Of a stretch of DNA of 64,000 nucleotides, positions 496 through 32,594 are shown piece by piece. Numbering within the stretch: position 1 is the first letter of the stretch; every line of letters begins with the position of its first letter. The position numbers and the translations under genes were made by a program. This DNA is from Escherichia phage RB43: sequence record NC_007023.1. The stretch is one strand, 5' to 3'. The notes under the pieces are model-generated. The model had not been told where the DNA came from and made no database searches. It saw only the letters and a list, made by a program, of their open reading frames with translations.

Positions 496-572
496 ATCAA
501 TACCTCTTGTTGTTGAATGGTGATGATTATAGTGATCACTTTTTCAAAGTCAATAGATCACTTCAAGATTCT

Positions 573-711
573 GAGCGAAGCGAAGGACACGAACGTAGTG
601 AGTGTCTAACTACAGAACTACACTTTTAAATTTTTATATTTTATATATAGAGAAAAATGTAGTTTTTGGTATGTTTTTTAACCAATATTACCTATCCGTT
701 TCGCTTCGCTC
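573..711. promoter_or_regulatory. Palindromic element in rnh/gp55 divergent intergenic region
   Basis: 12-bp perfect inverted repeat GAGCGAAGCGAA (573-584) / TTCGCTTCGCTC (700-711) flanking AT-rich core with nested imperfect repeat AACTACACTTTT (616-627) / AAAAATGTAGTT (653-664); third CGCTTCGCG copy at 719-727. Confidence 0.5.
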
Positions 712-816
712 ACGGAAACGCTTCGCGTTGTTTTTATTAAATAATATAGATTGGAAGTAGGTTTGAAACCCGTAATTCCATCAGCTATAATGAATGTATT
801 CAATTTGGAGAATATA

Positions 817-1332
817 ATGACTACTAAGATTTATGCAGATAATGATAAGCTGTATCCGGTAATGTGTAAGTGGAAACAGCAGATCCGTGAAACTGGTGAT
901 CGCAAAATGCCTGATGAACTGGGTATTGCAATCATGAACATCGCTCATGGTTTAGCCCGTCGATACAACTTCAACCGTTATTCCGAAGATTGGAAAATGG
1001 ATATGATCGATGATGGTATTTCCGCTACGATTTCCGGTTTACATAATTTTGATGAAACCAAATATACAAACGTTTATGGGTATATCAACAAGGCTTGCTG
1101 GCAAGCGTTTGTAACCCGCATTCTTTACGAGAAGAAAGAGAACGCGAAAAAATACAAATACTTCCTGGAACACGTTTACGATAGTGACGATACTGATATG
1201 ACCGCGATAGCTGATGAAACTTTCATTCAGGATATCCATGATAAACTTAATCAGTACGAAGAGTCTGCGAAAAAACCTAAAGATAAAATCGAGGTTGTGG
1301 ACGAATCGCCAACTTTGGAAATGTTTCTATGA
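817..1332 (+). CDS. 55: Late-transcription sigma factor gp55
   Basis: Translation from ATG 817 (GGAG 8 nt upstream) aligns with remembered T4 gp55 (GLAIMNIAHGLARRYNFN, GLHNFDETKY, ETFIQDI motifs). Confidence 0.9.
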   Translation: MTTKIYADNDKLYPVMCKWKQQIRETGDRKMPDELGIAIMNIAHGLARRYNFNRYSEDWKMDMIDDGISATISGLHNFDETKYTNVYGYINKACWQAFVTRILYEKKENAKKYKYFLEHVYDSDDTDMTAIADETFIQDIHDKLNQYEESAKKPKDKIEVVDESPTLEMFL

Positions 1333-30636: not shown

Positions 30637-31722
30637 ATGAAAATCAAAGTATTACAAGACACTGTGCAATCATTTGCTGAAATAAAAAATGCTGGCATCC
30701 CCTCTGGGGGTGCTACAACCACGAAAAACGCATTGAGTCAACCTATTGTAACAGCGGAATTTCCTTCCCAACGTGCAGCAGGTATTGATAACGCGTACAA
30801 CGCATCAAGCCTGTATAATAACGGCTTGCTGTTTACTGCATATGATTTCACTGGTGGTCTTGCACCAGGTAGCAAAGATAACTATCGTTCATTACGTCAA
30901 GCAGCACAGAACGCAAAACAGATATTAAGCGCTAACACAGGTAATGTTCGATATAAACAGGTTTTGAATACCCGTACTATGGGTACATTGAACCCGATTT
31001 GTCAAATACTTTTACCTCGAAGCCTTAACGACAACGAAGTAAACAGCCACCGTTACCAGGATGCAACCGATAGTATCGTTGCTAAAGGTTTGTCCCGTGC
31101 GGTGTCTAACGTTATCTGGGGTGCTGTAGAATCGGTTTCTGGTGGTATTCTGGCAGACCGTAGGGAAGCGATCGATATTGGTACGAAAGCAGCGTTTCAA
31201 GGCTCCGATAAACGTACAAAGATGTATTACAATACATTCGTAATCGAAAGCCGTTATGATCTGCTTGAACTGATTAAAATCTATTACCTGTTTACTGTTC
31301 TGGGTTATGGTACTACGTCAGGTGGTACACCTGCTGAACTGGCTGGCCTTGTTAAAACGGCGTATAACAATACAGCGTCTAAAGTGGCTAACGTGTTTGC
31401 ACCATCCAGCAACCAGACAACAGCAAGCGATTTCAATGACAGTATCGGTGATCAGATTGTTGACTTCGTATCGAACGTTGAGGTTATTAAATCGCCTCCA
31501 GTATGGTTTATTCGTGATTTCCAGACAGGTGACAGTCTACGCTTCCCGCATTCTACATTCGGGCCAGCAGGTATTACCAGCGTTCGTTTCGGGCGTACTA
31601 TGGATAATATCGTAAATACATTAAGAGAGTCACCCAATACACCGATATCCGTTGAAATCGAAATTCAGTTTATGGAATTGATCGACATGCGTCAAGATTC
31701 TATTTTCGATGTTCAATACTAG
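30637..31722 (+). CDS. 48: Baseplate tail-tube junction protein gp48
   Basis: 361 aa (T4 gp48 364 aa); position between 29 and 54. Confidence 0.7.
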   Translation: MKIKVLQDTVQSFAEIKNAGIPSGGATTTKNALSQPIVTAEFPSQRAAGIDNAYNASSLYNNGLLFTAYDFTGGLAPGSKDNYRSLRQAAQNAKQILSANTGNVRYKQVLNTRTMGTLNPICQILLPRSLNDNEVNSHRYQDATDSIVAKGLSRAVSNVIWGAVESVSGGILADRREAIDIGTKAAFQGSDKRTKMYYNTFVIESRYDLLELIKIYYLFTVLGYGTTSGGTPAELAGLVKTAYNNTASKVANVFAPSSNQTTASDFNDSIGDQIVDFVSNVEVIKSPPVWFIRDFQTGDSLRFPHSTFGPAGITSVRFGRTMDNIVNTLRESPNTPISVEIEIQFMELIDMRQDSIFDVQY

Positions 31723-31730
31723 GGGGAATA

Positions 31731-32594
31731 ATGTTTTATAGCGTAGATGAATTCTTATCTGGAATGGCAAACAAAGATTTTCAACGCAGCAACTTGTTTA
31801 GCGTTGTGTTCGCCACGAGTCCAGCATCACGCATTCTTGATAGCACGATCGGAAGTATTCGAGATACGTTGATTGACGGCACAATGAGTTCAATCAACGC
31901 GAACAACCCGAACGAGTTCATGAACGCTATCACAGGGGGTGTAAGCAAATTATTCAGCTATACAGTTGATAAAGCGATTATGTCCCTCAACAAAACAGGA
32001 TTCAGTAAAATTATGGGGGCGTTAAGCCCTCGCCTTGTTACTTCCCTGTTTGGTGATAGCGTTTACGGACAACTGTTGACAGAATTCCGTGATAAAATGA
32101 TGTACAATATGGGGTTGAGTATCGTCGGTGTTCAGTTGCCCGGTAAAACACTGGGATATGAATATGTTTATAACGGCGGTGTACCCCAGATCCGATTTAC
32201 CCGACCGGAGAATGGAGAGCTATCTCTTACATTCCGTGTTGATTCAGAAGCACGTAACCTGAAAGTGTTTAACGAATGGATATCCGCTATTCGTGATGAC
32301 ATTACAGGGCAGTTTGCTTTCATTGATGAAGTATCCAGCGCGATCCAGGTTAACTTACATAACCGTGATGGTGTTCCGCATAGCACATACATATTCCAGA
32401 AGTGTTTACCTGTTAAGGTCAGCAGCCCTGAATTAAGCTATGAAACAAACAACGAAATCTGGACATTTACGGTTGACTTCGCATATAAAACTGCGTGGAT
32501 CGTAGAAGCAGACAAAGAAGGTTGGGACGGATTCAAACAATCAATGATTGAAGGTGCAGCGGTTGCCCTTCGTGGTGTGGTATCAGGACAATAA
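31731..32594 (+). CDS. 54: Baseplate tail-tube initiator gp54
   Basis: FQRSNLFSVVFATSP..., LSLTFRVDSEARN, VNLHNRDGVPHS, SSPELSYE align with T4 gp54. Confidence 0.85.
   Translation: MFYSVDEFLSGMANKDFQRSNLFSVVFATSPASRILDSTIGSIRDTLIDGTMSSINANNPNEFMNAITGGVSKLFSYTVDKAIMSLNKTGFSKIMGALSPRLVTSLFGDSVYGQLLTEFRDKMMYNMGLSIVGVQLPGKTLGYEYVYNGGVPQIRFTRPENGELSLTFRVDSEARNLKVFNEWISAIRDDITGQFAFIDEVSSAIQVNLHNRDGVPHSTYIFQKCLPVKVSSPELSYETNNEIWTFTVDFAYKTAWIVEADKEGWDGFKQSMIEGAAVALRGVVSGQ

Follow-up and report, generated by a model that had tools for sequence, protein, structure and literature searches.

A mirrored hairpin element present in three copies in phage RB43 as a candidate replication origin

The spacer between the divergently transcribed rnh gene and gene 55 of Escherichia phage RB43 carries nested inverted repeats around AT-rich DNA, which raises the question of what this symmetrical arrangement is for. 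A sequence-only reading of a 64,000-nucleotide stretch of the genome (NC_007023.1; hereafter the window) had offered two answers, a bidirectional operator bound by a dimeric regulator or an origin-like DNA unwinding element, and had preferred either to a simple promoter. A review of the T4 field lists among its questions the use of R-loops at origins beyond oriF and oriG and the control of origin usage, and a conserved three-copy element of defined architecture constitutes a concrete and easily testable origin candidate in a phage group that lacks MotA. The Pseudotevenviruses are, moreover, used in phage therapy against Klebsiella, Enterobacter, Cronobacter and Citrobacter, and their engineering would benefit from defined origins. 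A search of the literature on origins of RB43 or the Pseudotevenviruses, and on the present repeat, yielded nothing.

Anatomy of the element

The rnh/gene 55 spacer occupies positions 496–817 of the window (322 bp). All the repeat features described earlier were found there, at positions that were exact or at most 1 nt off. The outer inverted repeat is perfect and extends over 13 bp, rather than the 12 bp first reported, with arms TGAGCGAAGCGAA (572–584) and TTCGCTTCGCTCA (700–712) lying 115 nt apart, and a third copy of CGCTTCGCG is located at 719–727. The inner, imperfect inverted repeat pairs 616–638 with 642–664 over 23 nt at 74% complementarity, and its best-matching part consists of AACTACACTTTT (616–627) with AAAAATGTAGTT (653–664). 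The core is AT-rich as claimed, with a GC content of 19% in 608–695 and 10.8% in 626–662, compared with 43% for the whole window. Among dinucleotide-shuffled versions of the 322-bp spacer, 2.7% contained a perfect inverted repeat of at least 13 nt, in most cases an AT palindrome, and, therefore, the outer repeat by itself is only marginally significant. The sequence GCGAAGCG occurs six times in the window against 1.5 expected, a number reached in one of 100 shuffles.

The element that we define extends over about 160 bp (569–729) and comprises four mini-hairpins arranged around the AT-rich core (Table 1). They follow the pattern GA-NC-GAA-GN'-GA, built on the d(GCGAAGC) motif, and the GAA strand is the top strand in the two left hairpins and the bottom strand in the two right hairpins. 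Hairpin A1, which corresponds to the left outer arm, has a C-GAA-G triloop and, in its stem, one G-C pair, a tandem G.A/A.G step and four further pairs. The four triloops lie at 577–579, 595–597, 705–707 and 722–724. At the position of B1, phages Phynn and L086 carry GACCGAAGGGA with a C-G pair. The stem flanking A2 covaries, becoming GTTCTA/TAGAAC in Phynn, as does that of A3, which reads AGCGC/GCGCT in GAP161 and ATGACC/GGTCAT in copy 3 of JC221.

The central module is constant in length, at 48–49 nt in all 16 copies examined, and its arms show compensatory changes between genomes. The core sits inside a 34-nt stretch (639–672) that is identical in all three RB43 copies of the element, and it is kept in Phynn, JC221 and L086. 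Eight of the 30 genomic AACTACA sites fall in the three element-bearing spacers, and the extra direct 7-mer is conserved while remaining unpaired. The 7-mer shifts in concert in all copies of one genome, to ATGTAC in GAP161, ATGTCTA in EC-W2 and ATGTCCA in both Phynn and JC221. Such concerted change could reflect gene conversion between copies as well as co-evolution with a binding protein.

Table 1. Features of the rnh/gene 55 spacer and locations of the three element copies. Positions are those of the window, except for the copies, which are given in RB43 genome coordinates.
Feature	Position	Strand	Remarks
rnh	start 495	-	From RB16, Miller and CfP1 annotations of the near-identical locus
Sigma70-like promoter reading into rnh and the 32-kb cluster of replication genes	526-553	-	TTGACT, 16-nt spacer, TATAAT; 11/12 matches (promoter scan)
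Mini-hairpin A1, TTCT-GAGCGAAGCGA-AGGA	569-587, cap 573-583	+	Covariation supports register (38 distinct instances)
Mini-hairpin B1, GACAC-GAACGTAGTGA-GTGTC	586-606, cap 591-601	+	Architecture of A1, with A-T instead of the G-C pair
7-mer AACTACA	608-614 and 616-622	+	Two direct copies
Central module	616-664	none	Arms AACTACAC (616-623) and inverted 7-mer TGTAGTT (658-664) around AT-rich core
Invariant core TATTTTATATATAGAG	637-652	none	Candidate DNA unwinding element
Mini-hairpin A2, CCGT-GAGCGAAGCGA-(A)ACGG	696-715, cap 701-711	-	Right arm of outer inverted repeat
Mini-hairpin A3, AACGC-GAA-GCGTT	717-729	-	Contains the third CGCTTCGCG
Sigma70-like promoter of gene 55	763-791	+	TTGAAA, 17-nt spacer, TATAAT; 11/12 matches (promoter scan)
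Gene 55	ATG 818	+	From RB16, Miller and CfP1 annotations of the near-identical locus
Copy 1	32161-32323		rnh/gene 55
Copy 2	103245-103431		gp3/gp2, beside conserved ORF
Copy 3	137973-138131		gp24/uvsY

Syntenic copies and covarying hairpins

A self-BLAST of the spacer against the 64-kb window revealed no second copy; the paralogues lie outside the window and were found in the whole assembled RB43 genome. A search for further sites had been proposed as a check, and a genome-wide search located them: GAGCGAAGCGA occurs exactly six times in the 179,839-bp genome, where about 0.09 occurrences would be expected (4^-11, both strands), and the six sites are both ends of three paralogous copies of the element that are 81–83% identical to one another. 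The same three loci (rnh/55, gp3/ORF-gp2 and gp24/uvsY) carry the element across 62 Pseudotevenvirus-like phage records, and a check by eye upheld their synteny in RB16, GAP161 and JC221, a distant Yersinia phage that, at about 70% identity, keeps all three copies. In relatives with conserved flanking genes the motifs are invariant although the flanks are only about 70% identical. This comparative evidence is decisive for the reality of the repeats.

The additional, fourth place listed for RB16 and Lw1 probably reflects copy 3, the more palindromic one, matching itself on the reverse strand. As seen in KP15 and in a survey of regions upstream of uvsY, other T4-like lineages hold different AT-rich repeated sequences at the same loci.

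With four hairpins per copy, a total of 64 instances was collected, 38 of them distinct. Pairing is Watson–Crick at offsets 1–2 in all 38 distinct instances and at offset 5 in 35 of the 38, while offsets 3–4 carry either tandem G.A/A.G or Watson–Crick pairs. The C-G closing pair is invariant and the next pair is G-C in 24 instances, A-T in ten and C-G in four, but is never unpaired. The covariation score amounts to 0.426 against 0.149 in shuffles, none of 500 of which reached the observed value, and did not exceed 0.141 with slid partners. The definition of a mini-hairpin, a stem of at least two G-C pairs closing a GNA triloop with pairing maintained, describes these structures and, judged by this covariation, the GAA mini-hairpins are real.

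Nearest-neighbour DNA folding of the half-elements revealed no unusual stability (-3 to -7 kcal/mol, z -0.03 to -1.7), and the stability that we ascribe to the hairpins derives from published work on d(GCGAAGC) and not from these energies. Hairpins of the d(GCGAAGC) type are experimentally very stable and bind SSB poorly, and those of phage N4 are extruded from supercoiled double-stranded DNA at the N4 promoters. Wobble asymmetry between G.T and A.C as an indicator of the folding strand, seven against four at offsets 5–7, was uninformative.

These results bear directly on the proposal that the outer arms are the half-sites of an operator for a dimeric regulator, and they count against it. Each arm is self-complementary, and in copy 2 of JC221 the left arm, CCGACC-GAA-GGTCGG, keeps its local hairpin having lost its complementarity to the right arms. 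The long-range symmetry is thus a by-product of mirror-oriented copies of a single hairpin motif. Pairing between the two 13-bp arms, on which the RNA minimum-free-energy fold relies, was also considered and was set aside in favour of local hairpins, on account of JC221 copy 2 and of an A/B swap seen in copy 3 of RB16. The inner 7-mers (AACTACA in RB43) may, nevertheless, be bound by a dimeric or multimeric protein, and this would be compatible with either an initiator or a regulator.

Promoters and alternative explanations

The view that the element is something other than a simple promoter is upheld by the location of both strong sigma70-like promoters, which lie outside the element and are directed away from it (Table 1). 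The position of the leftward one is annotated as a promoter in phage CfP1, and the first 32 kb of the RB43 genome carry minus-strand genes exclusively. Each copy of the element has at least one sigma70-like promoter directly downstream of it, and copies 1 and 3 are flanked on both sides by such promoters, which diverge and show 11/12 matches each. The leftward promoter at copy 3 (TTGACC, 17-nt spacer, TATAAT) is conserved; it serves no gene and runs antisense into gene 24, a late gene. At copy 2 the neighbour on the left is served by a late promoter, TATAAATA. No inward promoter in a conserved register was found at the three copies. An extended -10 promoter inside the element (TGGTATGTT, 667–675) was flagged in copy 2 only and its register is unconserved in JC221, Phynn and L086. 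Similarly, on the plus strand A3 resembles a weak terminator in copy 1, owing to T-rich sequence downstream, and an intrinsic terminator at 717–741 scores in that copy alone (5-bp stem); the T-run is missing from copies 2 and 3, at which no terminator-like site was found.

The disposition of the promoters is what a transcription-control or insulator site might be expected to show, with a phage or host protein on the 7-mers, the GC boxes or both regulating or isolating the flanking early promoters, namely those of rnh and the replisome cluster, gene 55, the ORF at copy 2 and uvsY. A specific, co-evolving binding protein would be expected to produce concerted change of the 7-mer; rnh, 55 and uvsY are middle-type genes of replication, recombination and late transcription in a phage without MotA; and similar hairpin pairs occur ahead of promoters in unrelated phages. 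However, promoters as close to consensus as the flanking ones need no activator, the -35 boxes are some 90–110 bp away from the core and 7-mers, at distances that vary among the copies, and at copy 3 the leftward promoter has no gene that could be regulated, while at copy 2 the late promoter serves the left neighbour. Moreover, the behaviour of the GC boxes, whose stems covary and whose loop alone is conserved, is that of hairpins and not of double-stranded half-sites, and we consider a control or insulator function unlikely.

Covarying stems could belong to a structured RNA, whether a small RNA, a 5' leader or a structure for processing or termination, and a 181-nt stretch does fold at z = -6 on either strand. 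The terminator-like appearance of the last hairpin of copy 1 and the location of the left hairpins of copy 3 just downstream of late gene 24 would also fit. This explanation appears quite improbable given that the strong promoters all read outwards, with none directed inwards in a conserved register, and that the T-run is confined to copy 1. In addition, the GAA/tandem-GA form lies on opposite strands in the two halves so that no one transcript has all four hairpins in this form, the arm-to-arm pairing of the fold is broken in JC221 copy 2 where the local hairpins persist, and the additional direct 7-mer is conserved without pairing. An Rfam scan of 400–900, with E-values up to 10, detected no family, the best E-value of 5.5 being at chance level.

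A third possibility is that a small mobile or selfish palindromic element (MITE-like), or a PeSL-type recombination cassette, has left the present element as its fixed relic, with no function of its own beyond recombination; this view draws on the terminal inverted repeats, the length of about 160 bp and the several copies per genome. Homing-endonuclease genes are located near copies 2 and 3 in some phages, and PeSL promoter/stem-loop cassettes are reported from T4-like phages, in which they bring about shuffling (PMC2839356). Against this, there are no target-site duplications, and the copy number and the three loci are constant in about 60 genomes and in JC221, among which no empty sites, new loci, or extra or missing copies were seen apart from artefacts. 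Since the loci are also junctions between core genes and not hyperplastic regions, and the internal sequence is strongly constrained with compensatory changes, a mobile relic seems very improbable indeed.

A possible origin and its relation to known systems

We regard the element (569–729) and its two paralogues as a candidate replication origin of the RB43-type T4-like phages, a reading that we prefer to the others but hold tentatively, as somewhat short of probable; in more cautious form, the element is a candidate site for DNA opening and loading of replication proteins. The earlier suggestion of an origin-like unwinding element is thus favoured by the copies, their location, the core, the 7-mers and the hairpin motifs, although these arguments are positional and structural, and circumstantial. 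Cumulative GC skew has just two V-shaped minima in the genome, both of them switches from minus to plus coding strand, and copies 1 and 2 lie there; oriE, oriF and oriG of T4 have also been located at strand switches (PMC3016281). A strand-compositional switch combined with conserved synteny, as expected generally of an origin, is therefore present. The minima, however, do no more than follow the coding-strand switches, where any bidirectional promoter region would fall.

The copies also lie near the counterparts of T4 origins. Copy 3 directly abuts the promoter of uvsY (PHROG UvsY), at the start of which T4 oriF is annotated; copy 1 adjoins rnh, from which T4 oriG is 2.2 kb distant; and copy 2 lies between genes 3 and 2, with T4 oriE 3.4 kb off in gene 5. 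The match is close for uvsY only, being 2–3.5 kb off for the other two, and was noticed post hoc. RB43 has neither a motA orthologue nor a middle-promoter consensus (PMC1524935), which makes T4-type MotA origins impossible there. The invariant AT-rich core, the two direct and one inverted 7-mers that change in concert, and the outward promoters argue further for an origin. So, too, does the geneless antisense promoter at copy 3, which recalls the primer RNAs of T4 oriE and oriG that are antisense to late genes, and the documented occurrence of GCGAAGC-type mini-hairpins at priming and initiation sites. The analysis identified no initiator protein, and fold matching of the conserved ORF next to copy 2 was uninformative.

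On the firm framework of anatomy, hairpin covariation, three syntenic copies and their positions, a course of unwinding, extrusion and initiation can be envisaged. Transcription from the strong outward promoters would generate negative supercoiling of the spacer, and the AT-rich core, with about 11% GC, would melt, possibly aided by a protein on the 7-mer repeats. The four C-GAA-G hairpins could then fold on whichever strand carries GAA (top on the left side, bottom on the right) and would keep the bubble open with opposite strands single-stranded on either side. Strands exposed in this way would provide the geometry for loading a 5'→3' replicative helicase-primase outwards in both directions, and the leading strand might be primed by the outward early transcript, as at T4 oriE.

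In its fullest form, which we consider distinctly more doubtful, the proposal is that the MotA-less RB43-type phages employ a previously undescribed origin design. Here, the core and lineage-specific 7-mers would be flanked by four mirrored GAA hairpins which, when extruded by supercoiling, would pin the bubble on the leading-strand templates and leave the other strands exposed for bidirectional loading of helicase-primase, with three homologous copies replacing oriE, oriF and oriG of T4. If correct, this would constitute a second origin design within one virus family, and would assign a role in a double-stranded DNA genome to the extraordinarily stable d(GCGAAGC) mini-hairpin, hitherto described chiefly at N4 promoters and in single-stranded initiation signals. 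The presence of the same hairpin cap in many unrelated phages suggests that it may be a general single-strand signalling module.

Among known systems, the T4 origins oriF (uvsY), oriG (34) and oriE resemble the RB43 element in that several occur per genome, at or near transcription and skew strand switches (PMC3016281). They also share a location at the uvsY promoter for one of their number, an AT-rich unwinding element in each and, from the T4 annotation, promoters with transcripts antisense to late genes; oriE, in addition, is dependent on an early promoter and carries short repeats (iterons). However, there is no sequence similarity, and a search of oriE, oriF and oriG revealed no GCGAAGC-type motifs. 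At oriF and oriG a MotA middle promoter, with a Mot box at -30, lies upstream of the unwinding element and so permits an R-loop, whereas the RB43 promoters have sigma70-type -35 boxes and the strong ones all face away from the core. Two hallmarks of the T4-type R-loop origin, a MotA promoter and a core downstream of a promoter, are absent, and the three RB43 copies are mutually homologous whereas the T4 origins carry no common motif.

GCGAAGC-type mini-hairpins have been described at the G4 origin, at ssiA of RSF1010 and at the N4 promoter P1 (GTTGCGAAGCAAC) (PMC13037366, PMC12633501). The hairpins of the G4 complementary-strand origin, ssiA and N4 carry, like those of RB43, a C-GAA-G triloop on a G-C stem, with stems of 5–7 bp, and the CCGAAGG of ssiA has a counterpart, CCGACCGAAGGTCGG, in JC221 copy 2. 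The G4 origin and ssiA work on DNA that is already single-stranded, unlike the double-stranded RB43 genome, and those of N4 serve as promoters for the virion RNA polymerase, an enzyme that, to our knowledge, T4-like phages lack. In such systems a dedicated enzyme (N4 virion RNA polymerase, RepB' or DnaG primase) recognises the hairpin on DNA that is single-stranded or extruded. In RB43 the four hairpins are mirrored around an AT-rich core, most of them with an extra tandem G.A/A.G step.

Iteron origins, including phage lambda ori and plasmid oriV and gamma ori, are similar in placing short repeats beside an AT-rich region, and the lineage-specific sequence of the RB43-type repeat suggests a cognate binding protein. 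The RB43 element differs in having just two to three repeats of 7 nt, no identified initiator gene, and flanking hairpins that are without counterpart in the iteron systems. Finally, PeSL cassettes also place a stem-loop directly upstream of an early promoter in a unit repeated in the genome; they are, however, reported to be short and numerous, and to shuffle genes in hyperplastic regions (PMC2839356), whereas the RB43 element is present in three fixed copies at junctions between core genes and carries a complex mirror architecture of 160 bp.

Mini-hairpins of the rnh-gene 55 spacer

The window is 100% identical to HE981739 from position 31598. The element, a unit of about 160 bp at 569-729, occupies the divergent spacer between rnh and gene 55, and strong promoters stand at both edges of this spacer, directed outwards (Table). 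All genes at 0.5-32.1 kb of the RB43 genome lie on the minus strand in a replication-gene block ending with rnh, which makes the spacer a major site of divergent transcription. A direct repeat, GATCACTT, is present in the leftward rnh promoter region at 534-541 and 556-563, 22 nt apart, its copies overlapping the spacer/-10 side and the stretch immediately upstream of the -35 box. A 52-codon GTG-start ORF across the element (602-760, plus strand), where a hypothetical protein is annotated in some relatives, is very likely spurious, since the three paralogous copies differ by non-multiple-of-three indels and hairpins, not codons, are conserved.

The sequence-only reading described a perfect 12-bp inverted repeat with a third copy, bracketing an AT-rich core and an imperfect inner repeat, and all of these were recovered. 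The outer repeat is perfect over 13 bp (572-584 and 700-712), the third copy is CGCTTCGCG at 719-727, the inner repeat (616-638 and 642-664) is 74% complementary and best matched where AACTACACTTTT pairs with AAAAATGTAGTT, and the core (626-662) has 10.8% GC compared with 43% for the window. In 2.7% of dinucleotide shuffles of the spacer a perfect repeat of this length arose, so the 13-nt repeat alone is only marginally unusual for such AT-rich DNA. It is considered non-random because its boxes are conserved across relatives, not because of its length: when the spacer was aligned with those of RB16, GuL6, KPN-12i, GAP161, EC-W2, Phynn and JC221, the GC-rich boxes were invariant in surroundings falling to about 70% identity, and several stems carried compensatory changes. 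The proposed genome search for further sites found six instances of GAGCGAAGCGA in the 179,839 bp and no more, each at an end of an element copy.

The long-range symmetry assumed for the two arms did not survive comparison. In copy 2 of the distant Yersinia phage JC221, arm complementarity is lost but a local hairpin persists at the left-arm place (CCGACC-GAA-GGTCGG), and the 12-13-bp repeat is therefore regarded as a by-product of a mirrored hairpin motif. Judged from their sequences, the arms are predicted mini-hairpins, mirror-oriented copies of one motif rather than long-range partners. Each contains the self-folding GAGCGAAGCGA, with a GAA triloop, a C-G closing pair, a G-C pair and a tandem G.A/A.G step, followed by an outer stem of 2-5 Watson-Crick pairs drawn from flanks that vary between copies.

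We surveyed 16 element copies from eight phages or contigs, and each carries exactly four hairpins, two at the left with GAA on the plus strand and two at the right with GAA on the minus strand, giving 64 instances of which 38 are distinct. Among the latter, the closing pair is invariably C-G (38/38) and the pair following it is never unpaired (G-C in 24, A-T in 10 and C-G in 4); the next two positions form the tandem G.A/A.G in 29-30 and Watson-Crick pairs in 8, and the fifth position from the loop is Watson-Crick in 35 (20 C-G, 10 T-A, 5 A-T). The covariation score of 0.426, against a shuffle mean of 0.149, was attained in none of 500 shuffles, and slid pairing registers scored at most 0.141. 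JC221 copy 3 has TTCGC-GAA-GCGAA, with Watson-Crick pairs replacing the G.A step, and ATGACC-TTC-GGTCAT in the position of AACGC-TTC-GCGTT, and in RB16 copy 3 the G-C and A-T versions are exchanged between the two right-hand hairpins. Nearest-neighbour DNA energies of the standard kind, in which d(GCGAAGC)-type hairpins are not modelled, gave no significant stability, and the folding strand could not be told from wobble asymmetry.

The pattern TCGCTTCGCTC-N(3-14)-CGCTTCGCG also occurs in 98 stretches of many unrelated viral contigs, against a rough expectation of about two (IMG/VR loci L010-L107, e.g. L012 5350-5900, L041 8000-8150, L025 and L039). There the 11-mer is bracketed by complementary stems of unrelated sequence and is therefore a hairpin cap in diverse phages; these arrays are unidirectional, and a T-run and/or a sigma70-like promoter often comes after them.

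Three syntenic copies and their central module

The whole RB43 genome was assembled for analysis because BLAST matches revealed at least two places per genome, and it carries two further copies (Table), their neighbours being named from PHROG matches and the GAP161 and RB16 annotations. All three copies share a 34-nt core, TTTTATATATAGAGAAAAATGTAGTTTTTGGTAT, without a single difference, and the genome has no further occurrence of it; symmetry is highest in copy 3, with an A-type (G-C) and a B-type (A-T) box on either side. The family is present in 62/62 Pseudotevenvirus-like records, typically at three places each and at 186 in total. Its three loci are syntenic between RB43, GAP161, RB16 and the distant JC221, and in a metagenomic relative (L127), where the loops are GTA, it is retained upstream of uvsY.

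A 7-mer beside the AT-rich core is arranged as two direct copies at the left, the outer one in some cases degenerate or overlapping a hairpin stem, and one inverted copy at the right, with 48-49 nt from left 7-mer to inverted partner in every copy examined. It is uniform within a genome and differs between genomes: AACTACA in RB43 and RB16, ATGTAC in GAP161, ATGTCTA in EC-W2, and ATGTCCA in Phynn, JC221 and the viral contig L086. Eight of the 30 AACTACA sites in RB43 fall inside the three element-bearing spacers. The extra direct 7-mer lacks a pairing partner, which argues for protein recognition, and the 7-mer may thus be iteron-like, besides or in place of forming a hairpin. Gene conversion between copies is an alternative explanation for the uniformity within genomes.

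Features of the element, its copies and compared loci (window positions unless stated)
Feature	Position	Strand	Remarks
Divergent spacer	496-817		322 bp, between rnh and gene 55
rnh	start codon 495	minus	named from annotation of near-identical RB16, Miller and CfP1 loci
Gene 55, late sigma factor	ATG 818	plus	named from RB16, Miller and CfP1 annotation
Leftward sigma70-type promoter	553 to 526	minus	near consensus; TTGACT, 16-nt spacer, TATAAT
Rightward sigma70-type promoter	763 to 791	plus	near consensus; TTGAAA, 17-nt spacer, TATAAT
Second left mini-hairpin	586-606	plus	GACAC-GAACGTAGTGA-GTGTC; arm architecture, A-T replacing G-C pair
Right mini-hairpin 1	696-715	read on minus	CCGT-GAGCGAAGCGA-(A)ACGG
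Right mini-hairpin 2	717-729	read on minus	AACGC-GAA-GCGTT
Copy 2	genome 103245-103431		81% identity over 175 nt; between gene 3 (minus) and conserved ORF of unknown function (plus), then genes 2, 4, 53
Copy 3	genome 137973-138131		83% identity over 114 nt, plus inverted arm; between gene 24 and uvsY
Copy 3 leftward sigma70-like promoter	genome ~137943-137971 (locus L109 42944-42972)		strong; TTGACC, 17-nt spacer, TATAAT
KP15 spacers	locus L118 7783-8086; L119 7801-8169, 42302-42605		304-369 bp, 18-25% GC
T4 oriF	start of uvsY (T4 record)		nearest: copy 3, directly abutting uvsY promoter
T4 oriG	in gene 34, 2.2 kb off rnh start (T4 record)		nearest: copy 1, adjoining rnh
T4 oriE	in gene 5, 3.4 kb off gene 3/2 junction (T4 record)		nearest: copy 2, genes 3-2

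A candidate origin and the alternatives

The element is a candidate phage origin or initiation signal, and that it is a replication origin seems to us almost as likely as the converse. Our literature search found no description of the element or of any RB43-group origin. Of the two functions suggested from sequence alone, an origin-like unwinding element gains circumstantial support from the conserved copies, the skew minima and the AT-rich core, while a dimer operator on the arms is disfavoured by their self-folding hairpins. Two V-shaped minima, and no others, appear in the cumulative GC skew of RB43. They lie at about 32 kb and about 103 kb and correspond to copies 1 and 2 and to the two minus-to-plus coding-strand switches.

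The main alternative, that the element serves to regulate or insulate the promoters on either side, accounts for its location and for the concerted 7-mer changes, but is less successful with the hairpin covariation, with the long and variable spacing from promoters that are near consensus, and with the copy 3 promoter that has no gene to serve. That promoter, retained in GAP161 and JC221, comes directly downstream of late gene 24; no gene follows it, and it would yield RNA antisense to the gene 24 3' end. A structured RNA is disfavoured: a terminator-like tail occurs, in copy 1 only, there is no Rfam match and no promoter that reads inwards, and the GAA form lies on opposite strands in the two halves, which speaks against a single transcript. 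A mobile element is similarly disfavoured, since copy number and loci are fixed and there are no target-site duplications.

At phage N4 promoters, hairpins extrude from supercoiled DNA. For an origin in RB43 we infer a sequence of events in which divergent transcription would render the spacer negatively supercoiled, the AT-rich core would open, and GAA-strand hairpins would fold, those at the left from the top strand and those at the right from the bottom strand. The opposite strands, in which the hairpins would have C.T mismatches, would remain single-stranded and be exposed with the right polarity for 5'->3' helicase-primase loading, outward on both sides.

Comparison with other phages and known origins

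The Klebsiella phage KP15 (Slopekvirus) has the same gene order and three syntenic spacers without mini-hairpins, which are GATC-rich (9, 10 and 5 sites) and have in common the short motifs ATGATCTATAAT and TAGATCTGATCT, found nowhere else in the 62 kb examined. Upstream of uvsY, according to an IMG/VR survey, T-even-like phages have the T4-type Mot-box promoter, low-GC relatives have a pair of direct repeats, AT-rich and about 100 bp long, and Pseudotevenvirus has the hairpin element. Because of these spacers and this survey, the three loci look like a conserved 'slot' for lineage-specific AT-rich repeated DNA, a pattern which fits origins and for which promoter clusters are also an explanation. 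In three low-GC T4-like IMG/VR contigs of 162-168 kb (L133, L144 and L145), two AT-rich direct repeats, each of about 100 bp, enclose the GC hairpin ctggagcgcagctccag at about 300 nt before uvsY, a further lineage-specific repeated structure at the oriF-equivalent position.

In T4, oriE, oriF and oriG lie close to transcription/skew switches; oriF and oriG combine a MotA middle promoter with an AT-rich unwinding element, and oriE is early-promoter dependent (PMC3016281). From the annotated origin places, copy 3 is the positional counterpart of oriF, and copies 1 and 2, given their offsets, match no more than the vicinity of oriG and oriE, whose primer RNAs are antisense to late genes in the T4 record. 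Whereas T4 oriF and oriG need the MotA promoter, RB43 has neither motA nor a middle-promoter consensus (PMC1524935) and therefore cannot use their design, and no element-like motifs were found in the T4 origins. The RB43 mini-hairpins resemble sequences related to d(GCGAAGC), a hairpin shown experimentally to be extraordinarily stable and to bind SSB poorly, which occur at the G4 complementary-strand origin, RSF1010 ssiA (CCGAAGG) and the N4 early promoters, including P1, GTTGCGAAGCAAC (PMC13037366, PMC12633501).
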